Positions 42,333-63,985 are shown, numbered from the whole stretch's first letter. The stretch is 63,985 nucleotides of DNA, filler included, from Collodictyon triciliatum (GCA_043381765.1; 6 parts of 6 records of this genome joined end to end with filler, not necessarily neighbours in it), one strand, 5' to 3'. Translations and numbers: made by a program. The notes: generated from the sequence alone by a model not told the origin.

Positions 42333-42432
42333 NNNNNNNNNNNNNNNNNNNNNNNNNNNNNNNNNNNNNNNNNNNNTTAATTAATTAANNNNNNNNNNNN
42401 NNNNNNNNNNNNNNNNNNNNNNNNNNNNNNNN
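42333..42432. other. Artificial scaffold linker (cuts off the left end of the viral element)
   Basis: N-TTAATTAATTAA-N. Confidence 0.97.
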
Positions 42433-43124
42433 ACATCAGGTATATAAAATTCTTCTTCTTGTGTAATAGGATTAATTGTCAACGGATTGATATTAATTCC
42501 ATATTTCATATCAACATCTTCATTATCATCATATTGTTGTTGCATAGCATTTACTTCATCTTCAGTCAATCTTGAAAATCGTGGGTCTCTTTGCGGTCCT
42601 AGGGCATTTTGAATTTGAATATCTCCAGTTGTAATTTGTGCTTGATTAGCTACACCCGGTTGTCTTTGCAGTCCTTGCAATTCACCTTGTACAGCTGCTA
42701 GTCTTTGGTTTGTTGTTTCCAATGCACCAGTCATCGCATTTTTTATTTGTGCAGCTGATGGCCCACTTGAAGCTGCAGCAGCAGGTTGAGCAGCTGGCTG
42801 TGGTATATTTCTTATTGCAGTAGATACAGCATCCAATTTAGTATTTGTAGGTTCTAATGCCTCCCTAAATGCACCCTTCATTGCCTCCGTAAATTGTGAT
42901 AGTCCCATTTCTACACCCACACGCGGGTCAGCCTGACCTGTTGGTGGTGTTGTTTGCGACCTTGGAGGTCCACTAGACGATGAAGCAAGTTGTGATGAAC
43001 TACCTGCGCCTCCAGTTGAACTAGAACCGGATAATGTACCGGCTCCTGCTCTTGGTGCTAAAGATGATGATGGTCCGCCTGTAATTGCTGGTTGTTTTCC
43101 TTTACCTCCGGGTGGTGTGCTCAT
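42433..43124 (-). CDS. Viral hypothetical protein, Gly/Ser/Ala/Gln-rich with short coiled coils (3' end missing)
   Basis: ATG at 43124 and open to the scaffold end. Internal repeat AMKGAFREALEPTNTKL / AMTGALETTNQRL. Confidence 0.75.
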
Positions 43125-43143
43125 ATATTATTAAATAAAAAAA

Positions 43144-46100
43144 TTATAAATTAAGTCGAATATCTAAAAAAAATTTGTCTGGTACAACCCAAATCCTCAG
43201 AGTATTGTCCGGGATTTTCTTTGTGTACTTTTTTGTTTTCCACTGAAAGCTTTCCTCCTCTGTAAATGTTGGACCCCTACGCTGTTCTTGTTGCGTTTCA
43301 TCTACATATTCATATTGATACTCCGGTTCATCTAAATCTTGTGGGTCTGCACGTATTATTTGCAGACCTTGAATATCAGGGTCATATTCATCTTCTTTTT
43401 CATAATCCATTGCTATTAAAGATTTTTCATATTCATTTTCAATCATCGGCTCATATTCTAATAATAGTGGTGCTTGAGCTTCTTGTGTAGCCTGGGAGCT
43501 TACTGGGGATTCTGGTAATAATCGTAATTCTAATGGAACCATTTGATTAAATATTCTAAGACCATCAAATGTAATTCCTTGTTTTTGAAAAATATCTAAA
43601 ATATCTTGTCTTGGTTCTAATACATTAAATGAATATTTATATTTAGTCATTACCCCTTTTGAATTTTCCTTTTTGTCTTCTATAATTTCAATAAAGCGGT
43701 TTCGCATCGGCGCAGGTAATTGTTTTTCTATTATAAACTCATATTGAAAATCTGGAAAACCTTCAACCGGTGTTTTATATGTTGTCAAATCTTGTTTTTT
43801 TTCTATGAATTCAAAGTTGGACCAACGAACTAACTGCTGTTCATCAGTGTTTAAATATTGTTCTTTAATTTTTAACTTTCTTATAGCTGCAATAGAATTT
43901 GAACATAAATCATAAAAATCAGTTGGTACTCCAAATTTAGGTTCTATTAATTCTGTTATAAATGTTGAGCGCCTTTGATTTTCTGGTTTGCGTAGCACCG
44001 TATCCATTAAAACTAAAAATTGTGCAAGTGTACCATATTTTACTTCTTTATAAGCAGAAGGAATAAGAGCAAGTTCTGATATGGCTCTTTGGTCTTTTTC
44101 TGAAGTTGTATTCCAGACAATCTGAAGAAATTTATCCCAAAGTTGATCCACCCCATTGGCTAACATAACTTGAGAATAATTTCCTGATTTCTCTGTTTTT
44201 TTTAGAATTTTATCTTGAAATGTTCTAAAATCATCTCGAAACATAGGTCTCAAATATTTATTATAAAACTGTTCCATAGTTAATTTTTCAGTGGGAAACA
44301 AATTTCGAGCTAGACTTGTTTGCGGTGAGGGTCCAGGTGTTAGAACTGTATCTGGTCGTGACGGAGAAATAGAAATAGGAGTTTTTGCTGGCGTCCGTAG
44401 TTTTGAAACAGGTGTTTTCGGAATATCCCATTTATCAACATTTGAACTAGTCTCCACAAATAAATTTTGTATGTCTAAGTTTACAAATTTTTCGTCTGGT
44501 TGCTTTTCTTCTCTAGCTCTTTTTTCAATAACTCCTATTTTAGCTGATAAACTAGCATATTTATCTAATAATAATAATCTTTCACGTGAATCAGGTAACT
44601 GTCCTTTAATATTTTCAACATTACCACGTAATGCTGCTTTAAATTGTCTAATCTCATATAATAAATCACCAGGTACTGCTTTCTTTTTTACCACATTTTC
44701 CCCCAGTTGAATTATTTTTTTTAGTTCTTTGTATAAATTTGCTATATCATGTTGTTCGTCATTTATAATTGCGTCTCGTTCACTTATTGGTGTAATTTCA
44801 CCTGGCAGTCTTTTAGGAGTTACTGGCTTTTGAGGCAACGCTGGATTTGTTGGATTTACCCGAGTTTCGGCTTCAATTCGAGCCATCAATGTATCATTTA
44901 ATTTAAAAAGCAACTCTTCAAAATATTTTTGTTTAGACTCATTTTCTTCTTTTTCAGCGTCTTCTATCTTTTTTTCCAAAAAGTCCTGTAATTTTTTTAA
45001 TTGATTTATATCAGTTATATTTCCAGCTTTTAATTCTTCATCTATTTTTTTTTCTCCAGCACTAGGCACATATACAGCTGGCTGTTTTTTTGGTGGTTCT
45101 GGTTTAGGTAGTTCTACGGGTTGCGGTGGTGGTATATATTCACGACCAGCATCATAAATAAAAGTATTATAAAAATGTTCTTTATGTCTACCAGTAAATG
45201 AGGCATCACTCATAGTAGCTTTTAAATTTGCATTTTTTTCCGATAGTCCTTTAGCTGTCAAATAATTTAATTCTCTCCTTAAATACACACCATCGGGACT
45301 TATTGAGTTTATTAGATACAGTTTATTTGCTTTATCCCATACAAAACCATAATTAACAATTGGCAGAGCTATTGGATCTCTTCTTCTTACATAAGCATTA
45401 TAAACAAATAACAAAGCATACATTAAATGAATATATGGTTCCTCTGGTTCATATTTACCCATACTAAAAAATAGCCTTGTTGCTACCACTTGACTCCACA
45501 ATATTTTTATACATTCTTCTTTTGAACCTGTAGTTATTTTGTCTAAAAAATCAGATTTTGGAGTGTAAACATAATTTAATATATTTTTACCTTCTCGTGG
45601 TGTATCTTTGCGTGGCGTTTCAGGGCCAACAGATATTCGTCGTTTTGCAATTTCACTTGTTATTTTATCCAACTCTTCTTTTTTAGCTTCTGACAAACCA
45701 GAAGACGGTTGAAGTCTATTTCTTTTAAAAGTTTCTTTTTCTTTTCGTAGATTTTTGTAATCCTCCACATTCTCAAGGTCTGTTTTGCCTTGCATTACAC
45801 CTTCATAGTATGAAATGAATGTATTTTTTGCTTGTATAAATTTACTAAGTCCTAAAAATGACTGTGCTCTTTGAAACAGTGATAGCATTGTGTCAGTATC
45901 AAATTTAAAATTAAAATATTTTCTAGCATCTTTTTTCATTTCATTATACACCTGGTCGTCTGTTAGTGTTCCGTATTTATTCGTGGTCTCTGTGCGCCAT
46001 ACATTAAAAATAACATCCAGATAGAAATTCTTGCTTAGTTTTCTAAATGTTTCTTCGTCTAGTTTTCGAGTTTTAACAGCTTTGATTAATTCAATTCCGT

Positions 46101-46194
46101 TTCCCGTCCCAGCTGTAAATGCCAGGTCGGTATAGTATGTTTCCACATAGTTGTTCAAGTAAATTTGTTTTACTTTTCTCAATCCAACTGACAT
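43144..46194 (-). CDS. Viral orphan protein (1016 aa)
   Basis: Intronless 3-kb ORF with a coiled-coil-like middle, TP/SP-rich patches and an acidic C-terminus. Confidence 0.85.
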   Translation of the reverse strand: MSVGLRKVKQIYLNNYVETYYTDLAFTAGTGNGIELIKAVKTRKLDEETFRKLSKNFYLDVIFNVWRTETTNKYGTLTDDQVYNEMKKDARKYFNFKFDTDTMLSLFQRAQSFLGLSKFIQAKNTFISYYEGVMQGKTDLENVEDYKNLRKEKETFKRNRLQPSSGLSEAKKEELDKITSEIAKRRISVGPETPRKDTPREGKNILNYVYTPKSDFLDKITTGSKEECIKILWSQVVATRLFFSMGKYEPEEPYIHLMYALLFVYNAYVRRRDPIALPIVNYGFVWDKANKLYLINSISPDGVYLRRELNYLTAKGLSEKNANLKATMSDASFTGRHKEHFYNTFIYDAGREYIPPPQPVELPKPEPPKKQPAVYVPSAGEKKIDEELKAGNITDINQLKKLQDFLEKKIEDAEKEENESKQKYFEELLFKLNDTLMARIEAETRVNPTNPALPQKPVTPKRLPGEITPISERDAIINDEQHDIANLYKELKKIIQLGENVVKKKAVPGDLLYEIRQFKAALRGNVENIKGQLPDSRERLLLLDKYASLSAKIGVIEKRAREEKQPDEKFVNLDIQNLFVETSSNVDKWDIPKTPVSKLRTPAKTPISISPSRPDTVLTPGPSPQTSLARNLFPTEKLTMEQFYNKYLRPMFRDDFRTFQDKILKKTEKSGNYSQVMLANGVDQLWDKFLQIVWNTTSEKDQRAISELALIPSAYKEVKYGTLAQFLVLMDTVLRKPENQRRSTFITELIEPKFGVPTDFYDLCSNSIAAIRKLKIKEQYLNTDEQQLVRWSNFEFIEKKQDLTTYKTPVEGFPDFQYEFIIEKQLPAPMRNRFIEIIEDKKENSKGVMTKYKYSFNVLEPRQDILDIFQKQGITFDGLRIFNQMVPLELRLLPESPVSSQATQEAQAPLLLEYEPMIENEYEKSLIAMDYEKEDEYDPDIQGLQIIRADPQDLDEPEYQYEYVDETQQEQRRGPTFTEEESFQWKTKKYTKKIPDNTLRIWVVPDKFFLDIRLNL

Positions 46195-46223
46195 AATTAT
46201 ATAAATATTTTATTGTGTATTGT

Positions 46224-46415
46224 ATGAAAACAAAACAGTACAAGAAGGCCAAAGTTGAAAAGAAAAAAAAAGTCAGAAAACTGGATTATTCCAAGGAAGT
46301 CGAGCCTTTTGCCAGCACCGTCCACCACTTTATCGAACGCAGAATAAAATCTCAGGAAAAAGTAAGCAATGGAAAAGAAAATCCTGCCGAGAGACGAATG
46401 GCAAGCAAAGATTAA
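46224..46415 (+). CDS. Small basic viral ORF overlapping the integrase start
   Basis: MKTKQYKKAKVEKKKKVRKLDY... is Lys-rich and NLS-like. It is divergent from the 1016-aa ORF. Confidence 0.45.
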   Translation: MKTKQYKKAKVEKKKKVRKLDYSKEVEPFASTVHHFIERRIKSQEKVSNGKENPAERRMASKD

Positions 46416-47574
46416 CGAGGTCTTTTATGAGTCACCCAAACACACCAATTCACGAGACAGTCTATTCAGAGCAGTGCGTGAATTTGGCATAACCCGCTCG
46501 TACGTCGATAAATTTATCAGAAGTCAACCAGACTGGCAGATTTTACAGAGACCGGTCAAACCAAAAAACACAAATACAATTATGCGGTTCGAGCCTGGCT
46601 ATGTACAAATCGACACCATCGACATAAGAAATTTAGACAGTGAGGACGCTAATTATCTTTTGACTTGTACAGACATATACACACGCAAATTATGGGCGTA
46701 TCCACTCGAGTCATTGAAAGCCAGTGATGTCGCTGAGCAACTGCAAAAATTCTTAAATTCTTATAAATTAACAAAAACAATACAGTCAGACAACGGAAAT
46801 GAATTCAAAGACCAAGTGGCTGATATACTGGAGAAACAAAATATAACTCACGTAAAAAGCAAGTCTGCGACACCGACAAGTCAGTCCCATATCGAACGCA
46901 AAAATGGCACCCTCAAACGCGCGCTTTACGGATACAAGCAAAAAACAGGAAACGACCCCATACCAGAACTGCAGAGTTTTCTGGACAGTCTAAATCTACA
47001 GCCCAACAAAAACACCAAAGTCGCCCCGGCTGTGGCGCTGCTGCCCGAGTACAAGGAAGAAATTATTAAAAATATGGAAAATTACAACTCGAAAAAAAGA
47101 GAGCAGGGCTCAATGAAAGACCTGGAGCCTGGTCAAAAAGTCAGAGTACTCTTAGAAAAAACCGATATTCCGGCAAATATGAAAAACAAAATTAAACAAC
47201 AGAAGGGATATCTACCCAAGTGGTCTTTAGAGGTTTATAAAATTAAGAAAAAAAGTACACCGAGCTCGCAGTGGGAACTCCCGTATTATACACTCGACAC
47301 AACAGACAATTTAGAAAATAAAAAGTTTAATCGCGCTGACTTGCTGCTGGTGTCAGATGACACAAAGATTGAAAAATTTAAACCAAAATCGCAACTAATC
47401 AGTGAGTTTGCTGAACAGGACGACTTGGATGAATTTTTAAAAAATAATAAGGGTAGGAAAATGAAAGGCGCTAGTGGTCTCGAAGAATCAGATATATTTA
47501 GATTCAACAAAGAAACACGAGAAATACAAAAAAATAGTCGGGCTGAACGGGCTGCGAGAAGAAATAAATTGTAA
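46369..47574 (+). CDS. rve (retroviral-like DDE) integrase, Polinton/Maverick type
   Basis: Catalytic triad YVQID / IQSDNGNEF / QSHIERKNGTLK. Polinton-type N-terminus (FYESP..ITRSYVDKFIRSQ) and C-terminus (PGQKVRV..KGYLPKWSLEVYKI..YYTL..FNRADLLLV). Confidence 0.93.
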   Translation: MEKKILPRDEWQAKINEVFYESPKHTNSRDSLFRAVREFGITRSYVDKFIRSQPDWQILQRPVKPKNTNTIMRFEPGYVQIDTIDIRNLDSEDANYLLTCTDIYTRKLWAYPLESLKASDVAEQLQKFLNSYKLTKTIQSDNGNEFKDQVADILEKQNITHVKSKSATPTSQSHIERKNGTLKRALYGYKQKTGNDPIPELQSFLDSLNLQPNKNTKVAPAVALLPEYKEEIIKNMENYNSKKREQGSMKDLEPGQKVRVLLEKTDIPANMKNKIKQQKGYLPKWSLEVYKIKKKSTPSSQWELPYYTLDTTDNLENKKFNRADLLLVSDDTKIEKFKPKSQLISEFAEQDDLDEFLKNNKGRKMKGASGLEESDIFRFNKETREIQKNSRAERAARRNKL

Positions 47575-47581
47575 AATAATT

Positions 47582-48064
47582 TTATTTTTTGGGTGGCCGG
47601 CCTCGGCGCGCAGGCTTCTTTTCTTCCTTACTGACTTCTTCAAGTTGCTCCTCCAGTTTTTCAGTGTCATATTTTAGCCTGGTAGCTCTTGACTTTTCTC
47701 TAGCTTCCTGAGCACGTTTTTTTCCCTTTTCCATTAATTCTTCCATATTCTTTTTTGACTTAAAGAACATCACCACATTGTCCTGATTAACAGACCATTT
47801 AACAGCAAATTGTCGAAAGAAAAACACCTTATCATCGTTGGCCTTGCGTCGCATTTGCTCGTCCATGTCTGGAATAACTGTAATTATACCTCCCTTTTTC
47901 CATCCACCAGCATCCTCTTTTCCAGACATGTATTTTCTGGCCTTGGCTAGATACGCAATGTAATCGCCTACTTGAATATCTTCTGGGGCAATCGGCTCCC
48001 AATCATCGGAGCTATAATTCTCTGGGAGTTTATCCTTGATTTCTTGCGTGAGTTTTGGAGCCAT
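47582..48064 (-). CDS. Viral protein with beta-rich (SH3-like?) domain and C-terminal AT-hook
   Basis: IQVGDYIAYL..WKKGGIITV..KWSVNQDNVVMFFK, then a charged helix, ending in ARRGRPPKK (RGRP AT-hook core). Confidence 0.75.
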   Translation of the reverse strand: MAPKLTQEIKDKLPENYSSDDWEPIAPEDIQVGDYIAYLAKARKYMSGKEDAGGWKKGGIITVIPDMDEQMRRKANDDKVFFFRQFAVKWSVNQDNVVMFFKSKKNMEELMEKGKKRAQEAREKSRATRLKYDTEKLEEQLEEVSKEEKKPARRGRPPKK

Positions 48065-48086
48065 CTTAATATTATCTAGATAATTG

Positions 48087-48125
48087 TTTTTAAGTTAGTA
48101 AATGGCTTAAAAAGAAATTTGTAAG
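48087..48125. promoter_or_regulatory. Back-to-back CTTAAAAA putative promoter motifs for two divergent viral genes
   Basis: The motif starts 30 nt upstream of ATG 48064 (-) and 30 nt upstream of ATG 48136 (+). Confidence 0.55.
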
Positions 48126-48135
48126 ACTATACAAA

Positions 48136-48324
48136 ATGGATCCTCAGTTCGAGCTCCGCTGTCTTCAAGAATTTGGATTTACATCCGACAAGGTCAAGCA
48201 CATCGTTCAGGTGTGGAAAAAAAAGAAGCAATATGCAGACAGATATAATCCTGTTTACGCAGTCAAAAGGAGAAAAATCAAAGATGCTGATAATCACAGT
48301 CCAACTCTAACATCAAGCGAATAA
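48136..48324 (+). CDS. Small viral hypothetical protein (62 aa)
   Basis: ATG-initiated, fills the gap between neighbours, and carries the same upstream motif as the polymerase-helicase gene. Confidence 0.6.
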   Translation: MDPQFELRCLQEFGFTSDKVKHIVQVWKKKKQYADRYNPVYAVKRRKIKDADNHSPTLTSSE

Positions 48325-48364
48325 AGAATTATAAATAAATTGTATTGATAGACTCAATTTATTT

Positions 48365-50836
48365 TTATTTTAAAAGAAAGGATGGTTTGTTTTCAGATTT
48401 AAGCGGCTCGGTTCCTATTTCAGTAATCATTTCAACTTCAGTATCTTCTTTTTCCTGTACACTCAATTTTTGGTGTCCAAGTATTGCAGGCTTTTTTAAT
48501 TTTATGTTTTTACACATCACATCCCGCTGTTTGACGTACTTGCTGAGCATAGGACACACTGTCATTTTTTCGTAAAATGTCCCAATTTTTATTTCAAACT
48601 TATGTTCAGATTGTTTTTTAAACTCAATGTAGTCTTTGCGCAGATCAGCTAAATAAACAATTTCATCTTCATCACGGCCAACTTTTTTATAGTTTGTGTA
48701 AAACCAACTTGTAAAATCATCTGATTCCTGAAAATAAGTTTCTGTAATTTGATGCGACCGACTGCCTTCTTGTAGAAGAAAAGATGGATTTTGTATATAT
48801 GATTGATACGCATCGGCCAAAATATGAAAATACGCAATTTTATTAGATTTCAAAAAATCAAAATCCTTGTATTTAATATTTACAATGCCATACCCCTTTT
48901 TATCATCCAGACCATCATACACTTCCTTTTCAATAAACTTGATAGGAAAATGTATTACAAATAGTCTCTGTGTAATTGCCTGTTCTACAACATCAAGTTT
49001 CGGTTTACTGTTGCACTCTAAAATAAAAGTCCCGCAATTTATGGTATCTGTCTTTTTTGAATAAAGACCTCGTGCGTTGATGACCGAGCAGCCTGTAAGT
49101 GATTTTAGTGTACTAGTATTAATTAATTCACCCTGGTCTGGTTCCGAGGTTGTAATGAGTCGCTTGCCCTCGATATTTGCCAAAGCTTGATTTGTTCCTT
49201 CTTTTAGTTTGGTTTGAATACTACTAGGTGCCAGCGCATAAAAATAGTTGCCCAGTGCGTATTTGTTGAATTCCTGAAATAAACCTTTGCCATTTCGTCC
49301 AGACCCGTGTGCCAAACAAATTTTTTCTATCAGTGTCCCGGTGAGACCCGTCGAGCAGTATTTCAAAAAAAGCTTCAAATCGTATTCCAGCGGTAGAATT
49401 GTTTTGAATATTTCCATTAAATTTATTTTTTTGGCATCTAATTCTGGGTCAGCTTCATAATTGTATCCACAGGTCTCTGATATATACTGTTCTGGTCTGG
49501 GTTCAATAAATTTGTTTAGCTGTAAATCAAATATTGCGTTATTGAAGGCAAATAAATGCGGTTTCTCGTTAAATTTCAGTGTCGAGTTTTCGAGTCTTTG
49601 CAAAACTAGTGTCACGAGCGCCCTGAAATTAAAAACACGGGATTTGATTAATTCTTTCTCCCACATTTTTTTATGTGCCTCAATAGCTTTTGTATTTGCT
49701 TCTTCAGCCATTTCAGATTCTTGTTTACCTCTTTTTCTTTTGTTTGATTTTTTTGTTGGTTGTTCATTTTGACCAAATGCTTGTTTCATCAAATCGTAAA
49801 TGACGTAATAATAATTATCGCTCCAATATTTTGCGAATTGGTAATAGTTTTTTTCCGGTGTGTCAGCCTCCCAATAAACGCCATTGTAAACATACAAGAC
49901 TCCGTTACAAGCCGTAAACTCTTTTTTTTTCGCAATCTCAGAGGCGATATTGTACAAATCAAACGGGTCCCAGAAATTAATATTTATTTTATTAGCTGTC
50001 TTGAGGTCAATTATCTCGGTCATTTCTTTATAAATAAAAGTTATGCCCGGTTCATCTACATATTCATTTATCATTTGTATGAATTTTTCCAGACCCATAG
50101 CCTTGTATCGGTCTTTATGTAAATAAAAACCATCGTGAGCTGGGATATACATATTTGTATTTTTTACAAAATCCAGCGCTTTGACGAGATAAACAGACTC
50201 GTAGTGTTGCATAATCAGGGACATTCCCGTATTAACTATTTCATACGGATTTTCTTTTTCTTGTTTGGCCATATCAAAAAACTTTTTGTAATCAGGGATA
50301 ATCACAAATTGTTCTTTGAGCCTCTTTGATTCTTCATAGTATGTTTTTATAAATTCAGATTCGATTGAATCTACAATTTTTTTGTCTTCAACCCAGGTAG
50401 TGAATCCTCCGCCAAAATTCATAATATTGAATAGGTCTTTGGCATCTTGTTTTGAGCATTTGTATCTATCCATAATCTCAGATAAACATAGGTCTCGATT
50501 ATTACAGTAACGCGTCAATGCTTCACATTTTATGTTATGTTTGTTACACAACTTTAAAAGAATGCTGGGATGGCAATTTGATATATCCACGTCTACATAC
50601 TTTTGATGTAATAGTGTCTGCTTTATCCATCTTGGTAGCGCATTGATATCTGGCTTACCCCAAAATCGCCCCTCGTTTTTTTGAGTGTACTCGACTTTTA
50701 CCACACCATCCACAACTGACTTTTTTAAAAAAATTAAAGCATTCTTTACACTTGTTTGCTGACTAATAAATCGCTCTGTTTTGCAGAGCTCAATTATATC
50801 GTCTTTGCAAATCTTAAATTCAACTTTTAATGACAT
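48365..50836 (-). CDS. TVpol (PolA-like primase-polymerase) fused to D5-like superfamily 3 helicase
   Basis: N-terminal GRF..LPRWIK, motif A YVDVDISNCHPSIL, motif B AKDLFNIMNFGG and motif C IPAHDGFYL. D5_N-like FAFNNAIFDL. SF3 Walker A GSGRNGKG, Walker B TSEPD, motif C LECNSKP, and AITQRLFVIHFP. Confidence 0.88.
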   Translation of the reverse strand: MSLKVEFKICKDDIIELCKTERFISQQTSVKNALIFLKKSVVDGVVKVEYTQKNEGRFWGKPDINALPRWIKQTLLHQKYVDVDISNCHPSILLKLCNKHNIKCEALTRYCNNRDLCLSEIMDRYKCSKQDAKDLFNIMNFGGGFTTWVEDKKIVDSIESEFIKTYYEESKRLKEQFVIIPDYKKFFDMAKQEKENPYEIVNTGMSLIMQHYESVYLVKALDFVKNTNMYIPAHDGFYLHKDRYKAMGLEKFIQMINEYVDEPGITFIYKEMTEIIDLKTANKININFWDPFDLYNIASEIAKKKEFTACNGVLYVYNGVYWEADTPEKNYYQFAKYWSDNYYYVIYDLMKQAFGQNEQPTKKSNKRKRGKQESEMAEEANTKAIEAHKKMWEKELIKSRVFNFRALVTLVLQRLENSTLKFNEKPHLFAFNNAIFDLQLNKFIEPRPEQYISETCGYNYEADPELDAKKINLMEIFKTILPLEYDLKLFLKYCSTGLTGTLIEKICLAHGSGRNGKGLFQEFNKYALGNYFYALAPSSIQTKLKEGTNQALANIEGKRLITTSEPDQGELINTSTLKSLTGCSVINARGLYSKKTDTINCGTFILECNSKPKLDVVEQAITQRLFVIHFPIKFIEKEVYDGLDDKKGYGIVNIKYKDFDFLKSNKIAYFHILADAYQSYIQNPSFLLQEGSRSHQITETYFQESDDFTSWFYTNYKKVGRDEDEIVYLADLRKDYIEFKKQSEHKFEIKIGTFYEKMTVCPMLSKYVKQRDVMCKNIKLKKPAILGHQKLSVQEKEDTEVEMITEIGTEPLKSENKPSFLLK

Positions 50837-50849
50837 CTTCTTACAATCC

Positions 50850-50871
50850 CTTACAAAAATCTTTTTAAGCC
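50850..50871 (-). promoter_or_regulatory. Putative promoter motif GGCTTAAAAAGATTTTTGTAAG upstream of TVpol-helicase
   Basis: 20/22 identical to GGCTTAAAAAGAAATTTGTAAG at 48104-48125. Confidence 0.6.
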
Positions 50872-50944
50872 TTTATTTTTTTGCGTTTTGTCAATTTTAA
50901 AAAAAACAATAGGGGAGGGGAGGGTTGGCCCATTTTTTTAATTT

Positions 50945-51072
50945 TTGGCCCATAAATCCCAAAAAAAATGGGTAAATCATAAACTCCGCGTAGGCGTTTT
51001 TTTTACATCGTGTTGAAATTAAACATAGGCAAGGAAATTTTTTAGGCATTTTTTTTGGGATTTTTGGGCCAA
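50945..51072. repeat. 26-bp inverted repeat (1 mismatch) with flanking GGCCCA motifs; candidate replication origin
   Basis: TTGGCCCATAAATCCCAAAAAAAATG (50945-50970) pairs with CATTTTTTTTGGGATTTTTGGGCCAA (51047-51072). Confidence 0.75.
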
Positions 51073-51091
51073 TGGGCCAAAAAATGGGGGG

Positions 51092-51274
51092 CTAATCAAA
51101 TGAAACTAAAATTTTTTCGTTCAACAATTTAGATTGAATTTTATAAATCCTATTATTTTTTTCTTTTCTATGAAACTTTTCAAGATAGTATATGTAGTTT
51201 TGTAAATCGTCCAAGTCGTCATATACGCCCTGATGGGTCAAAATGTCATTTATATAGATTAGAAGCTCGTACAT
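51092..51274 (-). CDS. Small viral hypothetical protein (60 aa)
   Basis: ATG-initiated and divergent from the ATPase gene across 21 nt. Confidence 0.5.
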   Translation of the reverse strand: MYELLIYINDILTHQGVYDDLDDLQNYIYYLEKFHRKEKNNRIYKIQSKLLNEKILVSFD

Positions 51275-51295
51275 ACTTTTTTATAGATAATAATA

Positions 51296-52018
51296 ATGAA
51301 TACGAAACGCGTTTCAAACATCAAAATAGCGCCACTGACAAAACCAACTAAAACCCGTGATTTTGGAATTCCGTTTCCGCTCCCGGATATTTCCGTCAGA
51401 AATTTTATAATGGGTGTCCTTGGACCGACTGGCTCGTCAAAAACAACGTTATACGCAAATTTAATTAGAAAGCACTATTTTGAGATTTTCAACAAAATTT
51501 ATTTCTGCTCACCGAATGTGACGGACGAAGGGAAGGTCTACGACAAATCCCTGGACTCGATCGAGTTTTCAGACGAGCGTGTTTTTCAGACAATAAATAA
51601 TGAAGTAGCAGATTACATAAAGGAGGATATAGAGGGTGACGAGGATTTCGAGAAGGAGGATTTCAGAGCGCTCTTGATAATCGATGACTTGGCCAATGAG
51701 CTGAAAAGCATTCGGCATACCCAGCTGACTAAATTAATTTTAAAGTCGCGGCACTTGCATCTCAGCATAATTATGATATCACATAAATTCACATACTTTC
51801 AGCGAATACATAGAACGAATTTCACGCATTTTATAATGTACAGAAGCAAATCAAAAAACGAGGTAAAATCCATTTATGAGGACATTATAGATTTGTCTGA
51901 AGAAAAATTCCAGCAGTTTTATGAGTATGCCACAGCAGAAAAATACAATTTTCTTTATGTTGTTTGTAATTCGAACCCGCAACTTTATTTTAAAAATTTT
52001 GAGGAGGAGTTAACCTAG
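51296..52018 (+). CDS. A32-like (FtsK-HerA) genome packaging ATPase
   Basis: Walker A variant GVLGPTGSSKT, Walker B LLIIDDL, Arg-finger region KSRHLHLSIIMISH, and RTNFTHFI. Confidence 0.9.
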   Translation: MNTKRVSNIKIAPLTKPTKTRDFGIPFPLPDISVRNFIMGVLGPTGSSKTTLYANLIRKHYFEIFNKIYFCSPNVTDEGKVYDKSLDSIEFSDERVFQTINNEVADYIKEDIEGDEDFEKEDFRALLIIDDLANELKSIRHTQLTKLILKSRHLHLSIIMISHKFTYFQRIHRTNFTHFIMYRSKSKNEVKSIYEDIIDLSEEKFQQFYEYATAEKYNFLYVVCNSNPQLYFKNFEEELT

Positions 52019-52038
52019 ATTTTTTTATAAGTAATGAT

Positions 52039-52449
52039 ATGGTATTCACACGGAGAAGCTTAAGGGGATTCACAAAAGGTCTAGTAAAAGTTGTTAGGAA
52101 GGGGATGAATGTCGGTGAAAAAGTAGTCAATGCCGTTGATAAAGCCACCGGTGGGGGACTGCGTGACTTGGCTCGCACGGCCACGGGTGGACTCAGTGAA
52201 CAGGCCCTGAAAGTTTACAATGCAAATAAAGGGTATGTGAAAAAAGGCTTGGATTTGGCAGAAGGGAAAAAAGGCGCAACAGTTGCGGGTCTTGTAGAAG
52301 GGACAAAATACGAGGGGCAATTTAAAAAAGGTGTTGACCAAGTAAATAAATACGCGCCTGTAATTCGCGGAGCTGCACAACGAAATGAATCCCTGGGAAA
52401 AGTCATAAAATCATACGAAGACAATATCCGAAATAAAATAGGTTATTAA
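52039..52449 (+). CDS. Basic amphipathic viral protein (136 aa), possibly a virion core or membrane-active protein
   Basis: Lies between the ATPase and capsid genes. N-terminus SLRGFTKGLVKVVRKG is amphipathic and the protein is Gly/Lys-rich. Confidence 0.7.
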   Translation: MVFTRRSLRGFTKGLVKVVRKGMNVGEKVVNAVDKATGGGLRDLARTATGGLSEQALKVYNANKGYVKKGLDLAEGKKGATVAGLVEGTKYEGQFKKGVDQVNKYAPVIRGAAQRNESLGKVIKSYEDNIRNKIGY

Positions 52450-52476
52450 TTAGAAAATTATTTTCTTTTTTAGAAT

Positions 52477-54099
52477 ATGGATTCACTACCCGGAGGAGCT
52501 ATAATTTAGAAATGTATCGTCAAAAAAGAAAACTATTTTGGAAAAACAAATGAGACAAGTACTTCCCTCAAATGGAACGGAGCAGACAGCAACTTATTCA
52601 TCTGGTCCTCAAATTGTTTTTAGGATCCAATTGATAACGAATGGCCGATTCAAATGGATAGCGCCCATATTATAGCTGATTTAACCGTAAAAGAACTAGA
52701 TACAGATGCAGTTGCTGCTCAGGATAGATTAAAAAGAAGTGTTATTAGCGGAGCTGCTGCTTTGCCAATTCTAGCTCCTTGTGAAAGTTACGAATCTTTT
52801 GTGAATCACATTGCTGTTTATCTCAATGGAAGTGAGCTCGAACGAATAGACAACTATTCATATCTTGGAAACTTTCAAACGTAACTGGTGCAGTAACCAA
52901 AATTGGGTAAATCTTATGAGTGGAGGAATGGGAATAGGTCAGTCTGTTCTTGATAGGTCCAGATTTTTTTTAGTTGGTGCAGCAGGCACAACAAGCAACA
53001 CAGTTCAAATTGGATTTCCACTTAGATATCTTGGATTGATGAATATAAAAACTTTATTGCCTGCTTATTTACTAGGTCCCAATTCGTTGGAAATCCGTAT
53101 TTGGATGGCGCCCGCATCAGAGTGTTTTAGTCATGGTATGATAACTTACGGTGCGCTAGGAGCCGGTAATGGAGCAATAGACTATAATGATATTGTTAGT
53201 GAAACTGATACAACTCTTAATTATACTTTAAGAAATATAAAAATGAATATAAACTACATTCAAACGGAGCCATCATATAACAATGCTCTTTCACAATATT
53301 TAATAAATAATAATTTACAGATTCCAATTGAAACATATTTTATGACTCAGTTTAATATTCCAAAAAAACTTCAGGATGGGTTACACAAAATATTTCAGTT
53401 CAATACTCAAATATAAATGCAATATATTGTATATTTACCCGAGCTTGTGAACAGGGTAATCTTGGATATCTAGGTACTGATAGAATGCATGCTATTGAAG
53501 GACTTTCTCAAGCAAGACTTACAGTCACTGGTAAAGTGCTACCATCAGTCCCTATTCAATTAGCTAATCCAGCTTATGCCAATGTACCGGCTGCTGGCCA
53601 AAATAATACTGGTACGGCAGCTGCGGCATCCGGATTTTTATCCAGCGCAACAATGGGTCAAGCTTTGTGTCAGCAACCAGAAGCCCTAAACTATTTAATG
53701 AAAGCATTGGGATATAACATAAGTGCTGAGATGCTGGGACAGGCCAACTTCGGTCAACAGGTTACTCAATCACTTCAATTGAATGTCGATGACGCACTGA
53801 ATACTGGAATAGCTAAACTGATGTTACCGAGGTCAAGCGCAAGTGTAAATTATGCCTACAACAAAGCCGTTCAAAATCGTATGATTGTAACGGCAAATAC
53901 AACAGCTGATAAAAATACCAATCCACTTGAATGTGAAGAAATATTCTGGAAAACTCCGACTCTGTTCGCGTTGGGGTGGTCTATGACCCGTTCAGATTAT
54001 ATTGACGAATTTGAGCTTTCGGGATACAATGCAAGCAGCAACTCAGTGGTATTATGCAGGTCGGTCTTCAAAAGTTGTTTAAACCGATCAAGTAGCTAA
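52477..54099 (+). pseudogene. PLV-type major capsid protein, disrupted by frameshifts and one stop codon
   Basis: Reconstruction: MDSLPEEL*FRNVSS..MRQVLPSNG..QIVFRIP..VYLNGSELERIDNY..FPLRYLGLMNIKTLLP..LEIRIW..YTLRNIKMNINYI..ISVQYSNINAIYCIF..LTVTGKVLPSVPI..FELSGYN, about 540 codons. Beta-strand-rich and downstream of the packaging ATPase. Confidence 0.75.
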
Positions 54100-54121
54100 C
54101 ACTACCTAATCAAAGAGAGAG

Positions 54122-54274
54122 CCCTTTGGTTTTGCACAAAAACCACGTTTCCCTTTGGTTTTGCACAAAAACCACGTTTCCCTTTGGTTTTGCACAAAAA
54201 CCACGTTTCCCTTTGGTTTTGCACAAAAACCACGTTTCCCTTTGGTTTTGCACAAAAACCACGTTTCCCTTTGG
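54122..54274. repeat. 29-bp tandem repeat (5 full copies plus a partial, running into a gap), each unit with a hairpin
   Basis: Unit CCCTTTGGTTTTGCACAAAAACCACGTTT, with internal stem TGGTTTT/AAAACCA. Confidence 0.95.
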
Positions 54275-54962
54275 NNNNNNNNNNNNNNNNNNNNNNNNNN
54301 NNNNNNNNNNNNNNNNNNNNNNNNNNNNNNNNNNNNNNNNNNNNNNNNNNNNNNNNNNNNNNNNNNNNNNNNNNTTTTTTATTGTTTTTTTATTGTTTTT
54401 TTATTGTTTTTTTATTGTTTTTTTATTGTTTTTTTATTGTTTTTTTATTGTTTTTTATTGTTTTTTGGTTTCTTAGGTGTCTTTGGTTTTTTTTGGTCTT
54501 TTTGTTGGATTTGTGCCAAAGAAAATTGTGGAGGCGTCAAAGTTTAAACTACATATATAAGATGTAATTATTTTAAAACAAATTTTATTATTTCATGATA
54601 GACCGGTAAATTTATCAGTTGTAAGTATATTTATTTTAAATTCCATAAATAGATGTGAGTATTGTTTGTCGCCGACACTGCAGGCTCTCTGCGATCGTCA
54701 CAAGCGCTCGCAAGCAACACAGGATGCTGCCTGACAACATGGTGCAGATCCTACCCGCCAGTCTACTGAACGCCACTCCCCTGATTATTTTTTCAGAAAG
54801 CGTTGTGAAAATAATGCGTTTTATACTGTTCTAAGTAGGCGAAAAAGGTTATGCAACCGCTGTTTTGATTCCTCTATTCTGCCTGTCACCTTTCTAAACT
54901 CTGACGATTAGCACAGTCCTTTGACAACTGCGTTGGTGTGTCCTGCGTCCAGCTGAGTTAGG

Positions 54963-57900
54963 ATGGGGAGTTTGGAGGAGTTGAAGGGCTTCTTCAAAAG
55001 TCTTTGGATGGGCTTTGTGTTGAACATCAAGGTCGTTTGGACTTTCTTTGCGAGTGGTCGGTGGAAAAGAGAGGTTTGTAGACACATCAATCAACCAAAC
55101 AGCACGCGTATGTGTGTCCTGCGAACGTAAAAGCATGAAGCTATGGATTACAATTGACAAAAAAATCGAAACACCACGCAATCAGGCGAAAGAAGCATGG
55201 TACCGATGGTATCATGGTATTGACGAGAACGACAAAATTAGCGATGCGTTGCTAATTCATTTCGGTGACTTGAAGCTTGATAAAAAGGTTTGTTTCTACC
55301 AACATGTTCTTCATTCGAGTACACAGAGAAGCATATTGACTAATACTCAAGCGTATAATGACCCCTCATATTATAAAATCAGTCAAAATAAAAATAATGC
55401 AAAAATAAGTAAAAACAATATCTTACATTTTATGATTGGACTCGCATAAGATCGGGGAAGGTGGTTTCGGCATTGTTTATCAAGGTACGTATCGAAGAGA
55501 AAAAGTGGCCGTCAAAAAAGTTCGAAACCAAGTTATCGGGGAAATGGCCATAAAAAATTTACTGAAGGAGGGAAAAGTAATACTTATTTGTATACCATAG
55601 AAATATCCCTTTCAATTTATTTTTCATTCTCGCATATGTGCCGTATGATAAATTTGTGCTATAAAATATATTAAACTGGCCTATCGAAACTGGTAACAAG
55701 TATGCATTTTTTGTTATCAAAATATTACGCAATGTGGATTATTTTTATGTAATATCAATTTTCTACAGATTCACTCAAGGTTAAGGAGTAAATATATAGC
55801 ACAATTGTTGGGTGTTTGCATCGAAAAAGATAATGTTTGCTTAGTAGTGGAATGGATGGACAAAGGGAATTTAAGGAGTATACTACACAGCCCCAAGGCA
55901 ATAACTCAATTATACGATATACTTACCGAATCTCAAGTCACTACCACTATTCTTTTTAGAAGTACAGCGTTGACACCTAAATCGTTATCTTTATTTTATC
56001 TTTATTTTTATCTTTATTTTTATCTTTATTTTATCTTTATTTTATCTTTATTTTATCTTTATTTTATCTTTATTTTATCTTTATTTTATCTTTATTTTAT
56101 CTTTATTTTATCTTTATTTTGTNNNNNNNNNNNNNNNNNNNNNNNNNNNNNNNNNNNNNNNNNNNNNNNNNNNNNNNNNNNNNNNNNNNNNNNNNNNNNN
56201 NNNNNNNNNNNNNNNNNNNNNNTTTTATCTTTATTTTTATCTTTATTTTTATCTTTATTTTTATCTTTATTTTTATCTTTATTTTTATCTTTATTTTTAT
56301 CTTTATTTTTATCTTTATTTTATCTTCATCTTTATCTTTATCTTTATGTTCATGTTCCTCCATTTTGTAGGAAATACTTCCTTGGAGCCTGAGGATTTCT
56401 ATTCTTCACCAAATTGCTCTGGGTATGAATGTCCTACATGGATGCCGGCCTCCAATATTGCACCAAGACTTGAAAAGTGCTAATGTACTTATCGACCGAC
56501 ATTGGCAGGCAATATTATATTCTACCATGCCCTATATATGTTTCACGTATAGATTTTCTATTTCCCAGTGCGAATCTTCTCTTTTTGATAGTATAGACTT
56601 TGGAGGGAAAGAGAGAAAGAAAGAAACATGAACCATAAGATACGTATATAATATAGGCTAAATTATGTGACTTTGGAATATCTTCGACTTTATTGGAAAG
56701 AAAACCACCAGAGTCAGCAAATTCTGACTATATTTACGGAACAGTCCAATGGACAGCACCTGAATTGTTTTTGAGGTTTGACTGCCATCAGACCAAAGAA
56801 ACAGATGTATACAGCTTTGGTATTCTGATGTGGGAAATAGCAAGTAGACAGGTAATTTTAAATATATTGTATGTTGTAAAGCTATGTGGAACAGGGTCAT
56901 GATTCATGACATGAACACCGCACACTAGGACCCGTTCTGGAATCAACCAACTTCGAGTATACCGAGCTTGGTTGTAAAAGGCAGTCGTCCAACAGGAGTG
57001 CTTCCGCCTGATGTACCACCCATATGGACCAAGCTAATGCAAGACTGTTGGAGCCAACTCCCTCTCAACAGACCGACGTTTGAGGTGATAGTGTCTGCTA
57101 TTGAGAGCATCACTGACTCTGATCAAGCCTCCAACCCGGCTTACGTTGACAATTTCGTTCACGGCCTGGAGAAACTATCGATTTATCAATATGAGGCAGC
57201 GAATCAGCTTTTCTTGGCTTCGCACGAACAAAACACTGCTTTTACGGGGGCATACTTGGGATTGTGTTTAAGCTACGAGCTCCATCCTTCCAGCATATAT
57301 TCCGGCAACAAAGGTGTAGTCATTTCGCATACTGCTCTCTCTTGTGACCGTTTTGTTCTGCACCATCTTTTACGACAGGCTCAATTTGCTGGGTCGAGTG
57401 CTTTTTCGGAAACCATTCGAATTCTCAGCCAACTGGCCAATGGTGAGTATGGGACTACCACAGAATCCCCAATTCTATTGAGGTGGATGCAAAGAACAGA
57501 AGCCAAGATAAGGCAAGACGTATTCGCGGCACACATGATGGGCATGCTTAAAGATCACATCCAACATGATAATGAAGGGGCTATCGAGTGGTATGAGAAA
57601 GCTGCTGCCGCAAATTTCCGCCCATCTCTATCTGCTCTATCAGTGATGTACCTGGAAGGAAAGGGTTGCCACAGAGACATCCAAAAGGCTTATGAATGGG
57701 CCCAGCGTTCAGTCTCCAATGAAGGCGCGTACATCCCAGAAACGCCACTTGGGTCAGGCTGGCTAGCCAAAGGCGCGGTTGTTGAAGCGACGGCTCCAAG
57801 TAATATCTTTCCTGAGCTTGGGACCAACGCAGAGACACTTATTGAAGAGGAGAACAAGAAAGGAGCTGTGCAATCCGCCACACCCATGAGGTCCCAGCCA

Positions 57901-58485
57901 AAAATCCTTGTGGAAGCTTATGATTCATATCTGCGAGGCTCCCAATCCCAATGGGCACCGTGTGAATACCGCGTTGCCGTGTGCCTAGAATATGGACGAG
58001 GGGTTAGAGCAGACCCTCATCAAGCACTAGTCTATTACTTGCGCGCTGCACGCAGAGGATATGCAGAGGCTCAGTTGCGTGCGGGTCGCTGGTTGGCAAA
58101 AAAGAGTCAAATGCAGACAACAACACAGTCGAGTCCAAATACATCTGCTATTACACAAGGAGCCTCAGTACAGCCACAAGCTACGACTCGAAGAAGCTCT
58201 ATTACAGCACCATCACAAAACGTCCCATCCAACACCGCTGGCACGACAGAGTCCGCAGCTTTGTTCTTGCGTCGAGCAGGAGAGCAAGGATGCGCTTCAG
58301 CGTGGGTTTTCCTTGGGGAGATGTATGAAAAGGGGACTGGAGGCGTCCCTAAAGATGTAGAAGAGGCTGAGAAGCTCTACAAGAAAGCTGCTCATGGCGG
58401 GAGTCAGTTGGGACATAGATCTGCTCGGCGGCTGAGTGATGCAAAGAAACCCTTTTGGTCGGCATGGATGAAAAACTCCACCTAG
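54963..58485 (+). CDS. TKL-family protein kinase with C-terminal Sel1-like repeats (multi-exon)
   Basis: IGEGGFGIVYQG..VAVKK, LVVEWMDKGNL, PPILHQDLKSANVL, AKLCDFG, GTVQWTAPE, DVYSFGILMWE and CWSQLPLNRPTF. Sel1 motifs include AIEWYEKAA, MYLEGKGCHRDIQKA and LGEMYEKGTGGVPKDVEEAEKLYKKAA. Start is inferred. Confidence 0.9.
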
Positions 58486-62246: not shown

Positions 62247-62346
62247 NNNNNNNNNNNNNNNNNNNNNNNNNNNNNNNNNNNNNNNNNNNNTTAATTAATT
62301 AANNNNNNNNNNNNNNNNNNNNNNNNNNNNNNNNNNNNNNNNNNNN
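62247..62346. other. Artificial scaffold linker
   Basis: N-TTAATTAATTAA-N. Confidence 0.97.
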
Positions 62347-62525: not shown

Positions 62526-63530
62526 ATTTCATAGAGCTGGAGTTGTTTGAGGGCGTCCTCGAAGCTCATGGACATGGTGCGCATATTCCTCTCCGGGTTA
62601 GTGTAGCAAGGAAGGGCTGAAATAGCTCTTGGGGCCCTCTTGATTGTAATCTCTCCTCGATGCTCTATGTAGAGACACTTTAAATTGGATAGGACGGCAA
62701 TCTGAGCCGGGAGCTCGTTCATCTAGTGGATTTATTTTATTTATTGCTGGGCAATAACAATAATAATAACAATAATAATAACAATAATAATAACATACAG
62801 GATTGTCGATAAGATTGAGAGTTTCCAGGGCAATTAACCCTGATATTCCTCTCGATAAAAGGGAAATCCGATTTGATGAAACATCGAGTTTGGTTAGGTG
62901 TACCAAAGCTGATATTGTCTCTGGTAAGGAAGACAGCTGGTTTTGTTGAATGAAAAGGTCTTTCAGGCTTATCATTCGAGAAATTCCCGGAGGCAAAAAG
63001 GATATCTCATTCCAAGACAAGTTCAGGAGGGAGAGGGATGTTATGTCAAGCACTTCAACGGGAAAGTGAGAAAAAAGGTTGTATGTGACATCCAGAATCC
63101 TCAGAGACTGAACCCCGGATATGCTCACAGGGAGAGCCGAGAGCTGATTGGACGGGATTTTGAGACACGCCAGGTTCATCAATCCAGATATCTGTGGAGG
63201 CAGAGCAGAGATCATATTGTCACCAGCAAGCAGCTCTGTGAGCTGGGTAAGGACTGAGAGCTCAGAGGGGAGAGAGGATAGTTTGTTCGAGTAGACATGC
63301 AGGACTTTCAGCTCGGTCAGTCTTGACACTTCAGCCGGAAGGAGTGAGATTTGGTTGCTGTGGGCCTCAAGGTTCACCAGGTTGCTCAAAGAAAAGACTT
63401 TTGGTGGAATCGTGGCCACATCCTTGCCGTTGATCCAGAGCCTTGTGCAGATGTCAATGACCCCGTAGTTCGGGCTGAATGAAGGCCGCAAAGCTGCCAA
63501 CTCATCCGCATACAGGGCAGGCGGCTCCAT
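62526..63530 (-). CDS. Leucine-rich repeat protein (3' end missing), paralog of the LRR-kinase at 24330-26885
   Basis: About nine 23-aa LxxLxLxxNxLxxLP repeats, with an in-phase splice to the exon MNELPAQIAVLSNLKCL..ISALPCY. Confidence 0.88.
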
Positions 63531-63985
63531 CGAGTTTCTATACTATAGAGGCACAGCTTCGTCGTATCAGCAACCTTTCGCTATCAATGGATCTTGTCTT
63601 GGGGTTCTGCGCCGCCCAGCTTGGCGTGCAGATTGTTTTTTTAGTGGCAGCCGTTGGCGATCGAAAGAGTTGTGAAAGAAAAACAATATTCTCCACTTTA
63701 GGATAATTTTATTAAAGTGGAAATTTAAATAAAAAGGTTTAAATCGCTATGGCATTTTTTTACGGCTGAAATGGCGCATGTAGTTTATACATATTCTGAT
63801 TCCAGACAAATTTCACTTTACTAGAACGTCCCTTTCTTTGTTTATGCTCCAGAGGATACAACCGTCCCCCTTTATGCAACGGTTTAGTGCAACTGACCCC
63901 GCGTTTCGGTCTGTTGGCAAGCAAAAGGTGCAAGTATTCTGGTGGTGGGATAGAATAAAATTCGCTCAAAGGAGATAAGCCAAAC

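Follow-up and report, generated by a model that had tools for sequence, protein, structure and literature searches.

A Polinton-like virus fragment with an rve integrase, a probable TV-Pol/SF3 helicase replicase and a capsid pseudogene in sequence from Collodictyon triciliatum

What kind of element fills a densely coding stretch of almost 12 kb in sequence from Collodictyon triciliatum (GCA_043381765.1), and does it belong to the genome of a host? The stretch lies at positions 42433-54274 of the window, which here means the whole 63,985 nucleotides analysed, made of parts of that assembly's records joined end to end with filler. A first-pass annotation of the window had proposed an endogenous Polinton-like virus (PLV) at this site. 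We conclude that the element is a PLV fragment, most likely a decaying copy integrated in a eukaryote genome, and give this reading a probability of about 0.7. It is an element of known PLV kind from a thinly sampled capsid lineage, in which an rve integrase is paired with a probable TV-Pol/SF3 replicase.

Gene complement of the element

A single contig of 11,842 bases accounts precisely for positions 42433-54274, with runs of undetermined bases (N) on both sides. Read in the standard code, it contains uninterrupted long open reading frames (ORFs) on both strands, every one of which closes on TAA or TAG, and arithmetic from the ORF coordinates puts its coding share at about 90%, in agreement with the earlier description of about 12 kb of intronless, packed ORFs. 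The genes that identify the element, and a conserved small gene among them, are the following.

46369-47574, plus strand: rve integrase, 401 aa (Pfam rve), with the D,D35E motif intact
48365-50836, minus strand: replicase, 823 aa, with a TV-Pol-like N-terminal domain of about 300 aa, then D5_N and a D5-type SF3 helicase
51296-52018, plus strand: packaging ATPase of the A32/FtsK-HerA type, 240 aa, intact (Pfam Pox_A32)
52039-52449, plus strand: basic Gly/Lys-rich protein, 136 aa (p136), conserved, between the ATPase and capsid genes
52477-54071, plus strand: major capsid protein pseudogene of a double jelly-roll family, about 590 aa

The integrase matches Pfam rve at 1.7e-10 (41.5 bits against a cut-off of 32.6) and, among Protein Data Bank (PDB) entries, the integrases of lentiviruses, foamy virus and Ty3 (9e-5 to 1e-3); NCBIfam models of IS481, IS30 and IS3 match below their cut-offs. 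Its D,D35E triad is intact in the translation (SDNG, 35 residues, then the Glu of HIERK), and the IMG/VR scan returned no relative of it. The ATPase matches Pox_A32 at 3.8e-14 (53.2 bits; the cut-off is 22.8), with a Walker A motif GPTGSSKT and a Walker B motif LLIIDD in the translation. In the helicase part of the replicase, the Pfam families D5_N (2.1e-8) and DUF5906 (4.8e-8) both score above their curated cut-offs, the C-terminal model of the P4-family primase matches at 4.8e-24, under that model's cut-off, and a profile of the replicase family reaches monkeypox E5/vaccinia D5 (1.4e-21) and African swine fever virus (ASFV) C962R (1.9e-18) in the PDB over the helicase part only. By these sequence matches, the replicase carries a D5-type SF3 helicase, composed of D5_N and an SF3 AAA+ core. 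No PolB family was found in any ORF (Pfam, PHROGs, NCBIfam), and the fusion of the TV-Pol-like domain with the SF3 helicase is the sole replicase. The earlier assignment to a PLV-type element with an rve integrase, an SF3 helicase replicase, an A32 ATPase and a capsid gene is borne out by the Pfam and PDB matches and by the fold of the closest capsid homologue.

A capsid pseudogene of a small double jelly-roll family

The capsid gene of the window has no Pfam match, and was placed through its homologues. A search with its middle fragment among longer proteins gave 19 of 823 candidates at E<=1e-3, all but one of them (18/19) 579-632 aa long and 57-89% identical. When the C-terminal fragment was used for a full HMMER scan of 1.84 billion representatives, only 12 scored E<=1e-3, and the capsid family is therefore small. 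The capsid alignment found no relative in IMG/VR, and profile searches of PDB sequences with the family returned nothing; judged by sequence, the capsid lineage has no named close relative.

An AlphaFold model of P0010, the closest capsid homologue (18 sequences), has a mean pLDDT (predicted local distance difference test) of 57 and a pTM (predicted template modelling score) of 0.63. With this model, Foldseek gave 238 hits at E<=0.001 in the PDB, first among them the capsid protein of Singapore grouper iridovirus (1.2e-12); the others include EhV-201, mavirus (6g43, 1.4e-11), ASFV p72, PBCV-1 Vp54, Sputnik (3j26, 2.4e-10) and PRD1 P3. In BFVD there were 101 hits at E<=0.001, including proteins of an ascovirus, a MELD virus, Qinghai Lake virophage, mavirus and TVS1. 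The matches have a probability of 1.00, yet identity is at most 13% throughout. On the modelled structure, the fold of the family is with certainty that of a double jelly-roll major capsid protein.

Aligned to P0010 with tblastn, the window copy falls into three pieces in frames +1, +2 and +1, with 77-89% identity, ending at residue 531 of 591; correspondingly, the coding sense across 52477-54099 switches between frames. The breaks were located by DNA alignment with L008, a metagenomic contig with an open capsid frame and 95% DNA identity over 1.1 kb, and with five further relatives (L001, L002, L004, L005 and L006).

about 52489, plus strand: +1 frameshift (extra C) relative to L008, confirmed by the five relatives
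52502-52504, plus strand: nonsense codon, TAA for CAG, relative to L008
about 52626, plus strand: -1 frameshift (T lost) relative to L008, confirmed by the five relatives
about 52867, plus strand: +1 frameshift relative to the five relatives, in a conserved block
about 53373, plus strand: -1 frameshift relative to the five relatives, in a conserved block
about 54045, plus strand: +2 frameshift relative to the five relatives, in a conserved block

The last three lesions are specific to the window. Seven other length differences (at about 52735, 52993, 53146, 53615, 53755, 53780 and 53902) were not counted, because the relatives vary in length there too and the protein match keeps its frame. The lesions are not all homopolymer errors, because the change from CAG to TAA needs two substitutions and one of the frameshifts is a 2-nt insertion. 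Homology to all relatives stops at about 54071, some 165 nt short of their stop codons, so that the last 55 or so codons are lost; it is followed by 50 nt of unrelated sequence and then by a 29-bp unit, repeated 5.3 times without mismatch up to the gap. Read against its relatives, the capsid gene of the window is a pseudogene, with five frameshifts, one nonsense codon and the 3' end lost. Two other accounts of the interrupted frames were considered and ruled out: introns, as the frame changes are indels of 1-2 nt relative to the relatives, and reassignment of stop codons, as all long ORFs end in TAA or TAG and the breaks in the capsid gene are frameshifts. The capsid motifs noted earlier do belong to a double jelly-roll capsid family, but the window copy is a pseudogene, split over three frames and truncated; this pseudogenisation, and the truncation of the element at both ends, had escaped the first-pass annotation and emerged from the reading frames, the tblastn alignment and the DNA alignments to relatives.

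Relatives, synteny and selection

Scanning metagenomes with the capsid alignment recovered nine short loci (L001-L009). The gene order at these loci is replicase (minus), ATPase (plus), 136-aa gene (plus), capsid gene (plus), a small ORF (minus), a 291-aa ORF (plus) and a Gly-rich ORF (plus), and the 136-aa gene adjoins the capsid gene in all nine. In L001-L004 and L006 the capsid gene is followed by the small ORF, the one of 291 aa and a third. None of these three has a match anywhere in the window, and the window copy is therefore without at least 2 kb of intact genomes, including the best candidate for a penton protein. The 291-aa ORF (no match in Pfam or NCBIfam) is that candidate; a minor capsid (penton) protein is not recognisable in the window. 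In L002 the 291-aa ORF (2797-3672) is followed by the Gly-rich ORF (3689-4198), which has repeated fibre-like stretches of the type G..G..L.TNG....W and likewise no family match; L003 and L004 are alike.

The genes that remain open are well conserved. The ATPase is 99% identical to that of L008 and 90% identical to that of L005, in both cases gap-free. Relative to L008, the ratio of nonsynonymous to synonymous divergence (dN/dS) is 0.023 for the ATPase and 0.056 for the 136-aa gene; relative to L005 it is 0.046 for the ATPase. These ratios indicate that the lineage has been under strong purifying selection for nearly all its divergence. Synonymous divergence (dS) from L008 is 0.17-0.29 in p136 and the ATPase and 0.57 in the capsid gene, where it was taken over the first 79 usable codons (omega 0.16). 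The raised capsid value suggests a different history of the capsid segment.

Among run assemblies and metagenomes, the replicase has homologues at 95% (P0044), 93% (P0001) and 78-79% (P0002) identity; none was found in IMG/VR or in the metagenome scan with the replicase alignment. The longest contig reported for both P0002 and the capsid protein P0014 is 24,938 bp, that for P0044 is 12,670 bp and that for P0010 is 10,337 bp. The exact window proteins are absent from a collection of 15 billion proteins, but unannotated relatives at 78-95% protein identity exist in public metagenomes and run assemblies, and the suggestion of a possibly undescribed lineage was an overstatement. P0044 is near-identical to the window replicase (48368-50836) across residues 300-640, with the differences clustered to either side, a block pattern that suggests recombination between variants. 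A different kind of exchange is seen in L005 (3-2210, minus strand), which has the ATPase at 90% identity and an SF3 replicase only about 24% identical in the N-terminal domain; the replicase has therefore been swapped within one morphogenetic lineage.

Is the element integrated?

The contig is held in the window by filler on one side and by a gap on the other.

42333-42432, no strand: artificial spacer (44 N, TTAATTAATTAA, 44 N), which opens the scaffold unit carrying the element
54275-54374, no strand: scaffold gap of 100 N, the sole link of the element contig to host-like DNA on the right

The same 100-base spacer occurs at five sites in the window (6370-6469, 13713-13812, 27850-27949, 42333-42432 and 62247-62346). 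By its sequence, TTAATTAATTAA is an artificial six-frame-stop linker. Such linkers are used for stringing together unlinked pieces, and because they recur, the window is a chain of separate scaffold units. The linker at 42333-42432 therefore leaves the element with no shown adjacency to genes on its left, and gene neighbourhoods that cross a linker are meaningless. The scaffold unit that begins with the element ends at 62246 and consists of the element, the 100-N gap, a 1.7-kb contig and a 6-kb contig; the two contigs right of the gap encode a kinase C-lobe with Sel1 repeats (Sel1 1.2e-27; kinase 0.0037, under the cut-off). The earlier statement that the element shares a scaffold with spliced host genes was too strong: on the right the two are joined only through the gap, and on the left there is an artificial spacer. 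The GC content of the element is 35.8% (32-44% in its ORFs) and that of six host-like ORFs elsewhere in the window 46-50%; the gene content of the window allows the guess that the host is a protist, perhaps an amoebozoan.

In its functional form, an element of this kind would rely on the rve integrase to insert its genome, which is linear, into host DNA, and on the fusion of TV-Pol-like domain and SF3 helicase to prime and unwind that genome for replication. The A32-type ATPase would package it into an icosahedral shell, presumably built of the double jelly-roll capsid protein of about 590 aa and of a penton-like protein encoded downstream in relatives. The present copy would be unable to build a capsid; its integrase, replicase, ATPase and 136-aa gene are still open. 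Its inactivation would be recent, because the divergence of the open genes from their relatives is almost all synonymous. We infer integration from decay, namely from the six disabling changes in the capsid gene, the loss of its 3' end and the absence of the downstream genes, a picture expected of a genomic fossil and not of a virus that still replicates.

Several observations weigh against this reading. No contiguous virus-host junction is available, with the spacer on the left and the 100-N gap on the right. All six frame-breaking lesions fall in the capsid gene of about 1.6 kb and none in about 9.0 kb of other ORFs, for which an even spread gives a chance of about 1e-5; such clustering is odd under simple neutral decay, and would be explained by poor sequence at the contig end, by a chimeric assembly or by recombination with a dead copy. 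For the integrase and for the ORFs of 1016, 160 and 247 aa, which lack relatives for comparison, intact means uninterrupted only. Finally, the model of the capsid homologue is of moderate confidence.

The boundaries and the clustering invite the alternative that the contig is a free or episomal PLV or virophage, from an infection or a contaminant, mis-scaffolded beside host DNA, with the lesions being errors at a low-quality contig end. Gaps at both boundaries, the near-identical DNA in an environmental metagenome (L008, 95% over 1.1 kb), the fact that all lesions lie within 1.8 kb of the contig's right end, the position of 3/5 frameshifts in or beside short single-base runs and the strong purifying selection on the adjoining genes are all in its favour. 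We nevertheless think it quite improbable: the nonsense codon is two substitutions away from CAG and one frameshift is an insertion of 2 nt, in place of the gene's 3' end stand unrelated sequence and a 29-bp tandem repeat found in no relative, and six independent errors in 1.6 kb next to 9 kb without error would be unusual. We give just as little credence to the idea that the host has many copies and that the contig is a collapsed or chimeric assembly of several, with the capsid part taken from an older copy already dead and everything else from a younger copy; such an element would be endogenous all the same, and the contig a mosaic, not one molecule. The many variants of the capsid protein (57-89%) and the replicase (78-95%) in run assemblies, the block-wise differences from P0044 and the synonymous divergence from L008, higher in the capsid gene (0.57) than in p136 and the ATPase (0.17-0.29), are what such a mosaic would give. 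Natural recombination, common in these viruses, gives the same jump in divergence, however, a search for other copies within the 64-kb window found none, and the variants are not known to share one host.

How the element lived is a separate matter. A virophage lifestyle, with reliance on a giant virus of the same host and integration as a defence-like provirus in place of autonomous replication as a PLV, has some appeal, as passages of two sources (PMC3671162, PMC4642659) present the TV-Pol-SF3 fusion as typical of Sputnik-type virophages and the rve integrase as that of mavirus, and the capsid model matches both mavirus and Sputnik capsids at E values of about 1e-11 to 1e-10. On balance we regard it as unlikely, since the iridovirus and coccolithovirus capsids match slightly better than those of virophages, no cysteine protease was found in the part present or in the fragments of relatives, the mimivirus-type early-promoter octamer is not enriched (12 observed, 15.2 expected) and the window contains no giant-virus gene. 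Very improbable, in our estimate, is a more radical alternative to plain decay: that the capsid module was selectively destroyed and the integrase, replicase and ATPase kept, as in a PLV that is becoming a capsid-less, self-replicating, integrating element or that has been disarmed by its host, from a capsid lineage with no named relative or IMG/VR member.

The N-terminal domain of the replicase

The element was earlier said to encode a TVpol replicase. According to passages of Iyer et al. 2008 (PMC2579912), the TV-Pol core has four defining features: the thumb, a hairpin whose Arg is invariant, two Asp residues in the palm and a fingers module carrying the motif RxxxK. We aligned seven N-terminal domains, namely those of the window, P0001, P0002, P0003, P0005, the L005 ORF and P0040. 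The last of these, a metagenomic protein of 957 aa, has the same polymerase-like domain fused to an SF2 (ResIII) helicase, not to SF3. Invariant in 7/7 are G56-R57, D82, D84, N87, Y110, R114, K133, E213, L217 and D235-G236. Among them, G56-R57 follows two predicted strands (in a low-confidence model) and would supply the hairpin Arg, and D84 (with D82) and D235, the latter in an H/F-D-G motif, would be the palm residues. In the RxxxK motif K133 is invariant, and the first position is R in 3/7 (P0003, P0005, L005), K in 3/7 (window, P0001, P0002) and absent in P0040.

The same source, in the part available, names the Microcystis phage Ma-LMM01 as a carrier of TV-Pol (PMC2579912). A hidden Markov model of the N-terminal domain, run against the 300 Ma-LMM01 ORFs of at least 80 aa, had MAP_030 as its top match (E 0.053, next 0.26), and hhalign against the 51 ORFs that reach 300 aa or more gave the same protein a probability of 68.4% (P 4.6e-5, 237 columns), the next best having 1.1%. 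MAP_030 is a hypothetical protein of 506 aa that adjoins two transposase genes. The alignment pairs the hairpin Arg, D84, C88-H89, R114, K133, N-x-G, E213 and the HDG motif with their counterparts in MAP_030.

That the N-terminal domain is a TV-Pol is, on these motifs and this profile match, likely. Three points count against it: a direct match to PolA is lacking in Pfam, PHROGs and the PDB, and searches of the ESM Atlas and by tblastn of phages gave no usable match; the AlphaFold model of the domain, with a pLDDT of 40, is unusable; and MAP_030 would itself be the TV-Pol of Ma-LMM01 by our own deduction, as the passages of the source do not name the ORF, and it is a single match of moderate strength. 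The claim of a TVpol replicase is therefore upheld at the level of motifs and of one profile match, but not by any direct PolA hit. Alternatively, the domain could be of the archaeo-eukaryotic primase (AEP) type found in poxvirus D5 and in many primase-helicases of PLVs. Along with the missing PolA match, the spacing D82-x-D84, which we take to resemble AEP motif I, was counted for this alternative. AEP-SF3 fusions are also common in PLVs, as stated in parts of two sources (10.64898/2026.10.13.758929, PMC4642659). We consider an AEP rather improbable, because the profile searches that reach D5, E5 and C962R hit the helicase parts alone and not the AEP domains of these proteins, and because the match in Ma-LMM01 is not the annotated primase of the phage, which scored 0.3%. 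Moreover, the stretch of roughly 150 residues from D84 to D235 has a low-confidence helical prediction, which would fit a fingers insertion in a PolA-type palm, and [RK]xxxK followed by N-x-G-G, the upstream hairpin Arg and the HDG motif agree with the TV-Pol list as excerpted from PMC2579912.

Comparison with known elements

A TV-Pol-like replicase next to an rve integrase sets the fragment apart from the PLVs that it otherwise resembles. In the sections of Yutin et al. 2015 available (PMC4642659), PLVs are characterised by a core morphogenetic module of double jelly-roll capsid protein, minor capsid (penton) protein and A32/FtsK-HerA-type ATPase, by genomes of 14-40 kb, terminal inverted repeats and, if integrated by rve, target-site duplications, and an rve integrase is given for one PLV only, which has protein-primed PolB (pPolB). 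Terminal inverted repeats and target-site duplications of the present element could not be sought, because both its ends are missing (the left is cut inside an ORF and the right inside the capsid gene), and no terminal inverted repeat pair occurs within the contig, whose two ends are both incomplete. By the same sections, PgVV and PLV-YSL1, as well as PLV-RED1, are likewise small dsDNA elements with a double jelly-roll capsid, an A32-type ATPase and a PolA-like/SF3 fusion, for which neither pPolB nor a maturation protease was found; they differ from the window element in having no rve integrase, and the window element differs from them also in being broken. From all named viruses it is distinguished by a capsid family with no match at the level of sequence (identity of at most 13% in the fold hits).

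Sputnik, with its V13 replicase, shares a TV-Pol-like domain with D5-type SF3 helicase, a double jelly-roll capsid and an FtsK/A32-type ATPase, as portrayed in passages of PMC2579912 and PMC3671162. It has a tyrosine integrase and a cysteine protease, in contrast, and neither is seen in the window element. The two were compared by description, with no detectable sequence similarity in the databases searched, and Sputnik is absent from the phage collection used. With mavirus and the Polintons/Mavericks, the element has in common an rve integrase with D,D35E, an A32-type ATPase and a double jelly-roll capsid, and would share integration into host DNA. Polintons and mavirus are defined by pPolB and nearly all have an adenain-like protease, and neither was found in the window element. 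Virophages of the Sputnik and mavirus type carry a cysteine maturation protease beside capsid, penton and ATPase genes. No maturation protease family was detected in the ORFs of the window or of L002 and L005, where the missing ends could hide one.

In the parts of Bellas et al. 2023 at hand (PMC10120064), thousands of insertions are reported from protists, with amoebozoan hosts included; they carry a capsid gene, have pPolB or else a primase-helicase, and encode either a tyrosine recombinase or rve, and their capsid genes commonly contain stop codons. Endogenous PLV and virophage elements of protists are typically 15-30 kb with terminal inverted repeats, going by passages of PMC10120064 and PMC7805220, whereas the window holds an 11.8-kb fragment without ends. 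What was available of Bellas and Sommaruga 2021 (PMC7805220) includes VC20, a capsid group linked to amoebae, for which HHpred showed similarity to the capsid of Singapore grouper iridovirus. The window's capsid family has that protein as its best match among solved structures too; this shared hit, compared by description, is a lead only. In a portion of a study of cryptophyte PLVs, the TVpol-SF3 cluster mostly carries a tyrosine recombinase, with rve in 2/298 (PMC12220804). The literature search found no paper on this particular element; supplements of papers lay outside the search and may list it.

If integration is real, the known endogenous PLVs gain a further host and a capsid lineage that has been little sampled. 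The pairing of a TV-Pol-like SF3 replicase with rve sits between the gene sets of the Sputnik and mavirus types, and bears on the order in which virophages, polintons and PLVs exchanged modules, a matter presented as debated in excerpts of PMC3671162; L005-type relatives show such exchange inside one lineage. Current concepts are unchanged, as swaps of this kind and numerous broken capsid genes are already on record from large surveys. The mixed module set proposed at first is present as this pairing, but its novelty was overstated, since the accessible parts of two sources describe module swaps as common in PLVs (PMC10120064, 10.64898/2026.06.19.733378), the second, a 2026 preprint, reporting replication-module switches in all PLV groups.

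Other features of the contig and window

Apart from the genes above, the contig contains the following features.

42433-43124, minus strand: orphan ORF p247, of which the N-terminal 230 codons are present and the C-terminus is lost at the contig start
43144-46194, minus strand: orphan ORF, 1016 aa, uninterrupted, no family
47582-48064, minus strand: orphan ORF, 160 aa, no family (Pfam, PHROGs, NCBIfam)
50929-51088, no strand: imperfect inverted repeat in the divergent intergenic region between replicase and ATPase
54122-54274, no strand: 29-bp tandem repeat, 5.3 perfect copies, reaching the gap

The N-terminal part of p247 is of low complexity and rich in Ser, Gly, Pro and Ala; no family was found for it in Pfam, PHROGs or NCBIfam, a lone PHROG tail match (E 0.0098) not being credible. 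The 1016-aa ORF has no match in Pfam, PHROGs, NCBIfam, PDB sequences, the ESM Atlas or IMG/VR, and the 136-aa protein has no family in Pfam, PHROGs or NCBIfam. The 160-aa ORF ends in RRGRPPKK, which presumably resembles an AT-hook DNA-binding motif. Three further orphan ORFs are of only 60-63 aa each, so that, of the seven orphans counted earlier, four are substantial (247+, 1016, 160 and 136 aa). The 29-bp unit is absent elsewhere in the window, from the nine loci L001-L009 and from IMG/VR (5 matches against 0 expected in the window).

The inverted repeat has arms of 48 nt that are 81% complementary, a 64-nt spacer and GGCCC/GGGCC cores. It is not kept in the same spacer of L005, whose replicase differs, and is a candidate origin or promoter element. 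Directly upstream of the ATPase start, about 18 bases (51276-51295; T-rich, then TATAGATAATAAT) are conserved in L005 (2481-2498), where the remaining spacer is unrelated, and may be a promoter element; a similar TAGATAATA precedes the 160-aa ORF. The T-rich upstream motif is not distinctive in the AT-rich window.

No tRNA or Rfam family was found in the window. Host-like genes lie at 24330-25496 (minus), 31214-32143 (minus), 55697-58485 (plus) and 62598-63542 (minus). They comprise two kinases, one of which has Sel1 repeats and is apparently interrupted by introns, a leucine-rich repeat protein and an ORF similar to FAE1/type III polyketide synthases. An ORF upstream at 55697 resembles an earlier exon of the kinase. 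The host-like genes are surrounded by AT-rich DNA with many microsatellites and homopolymer runs.

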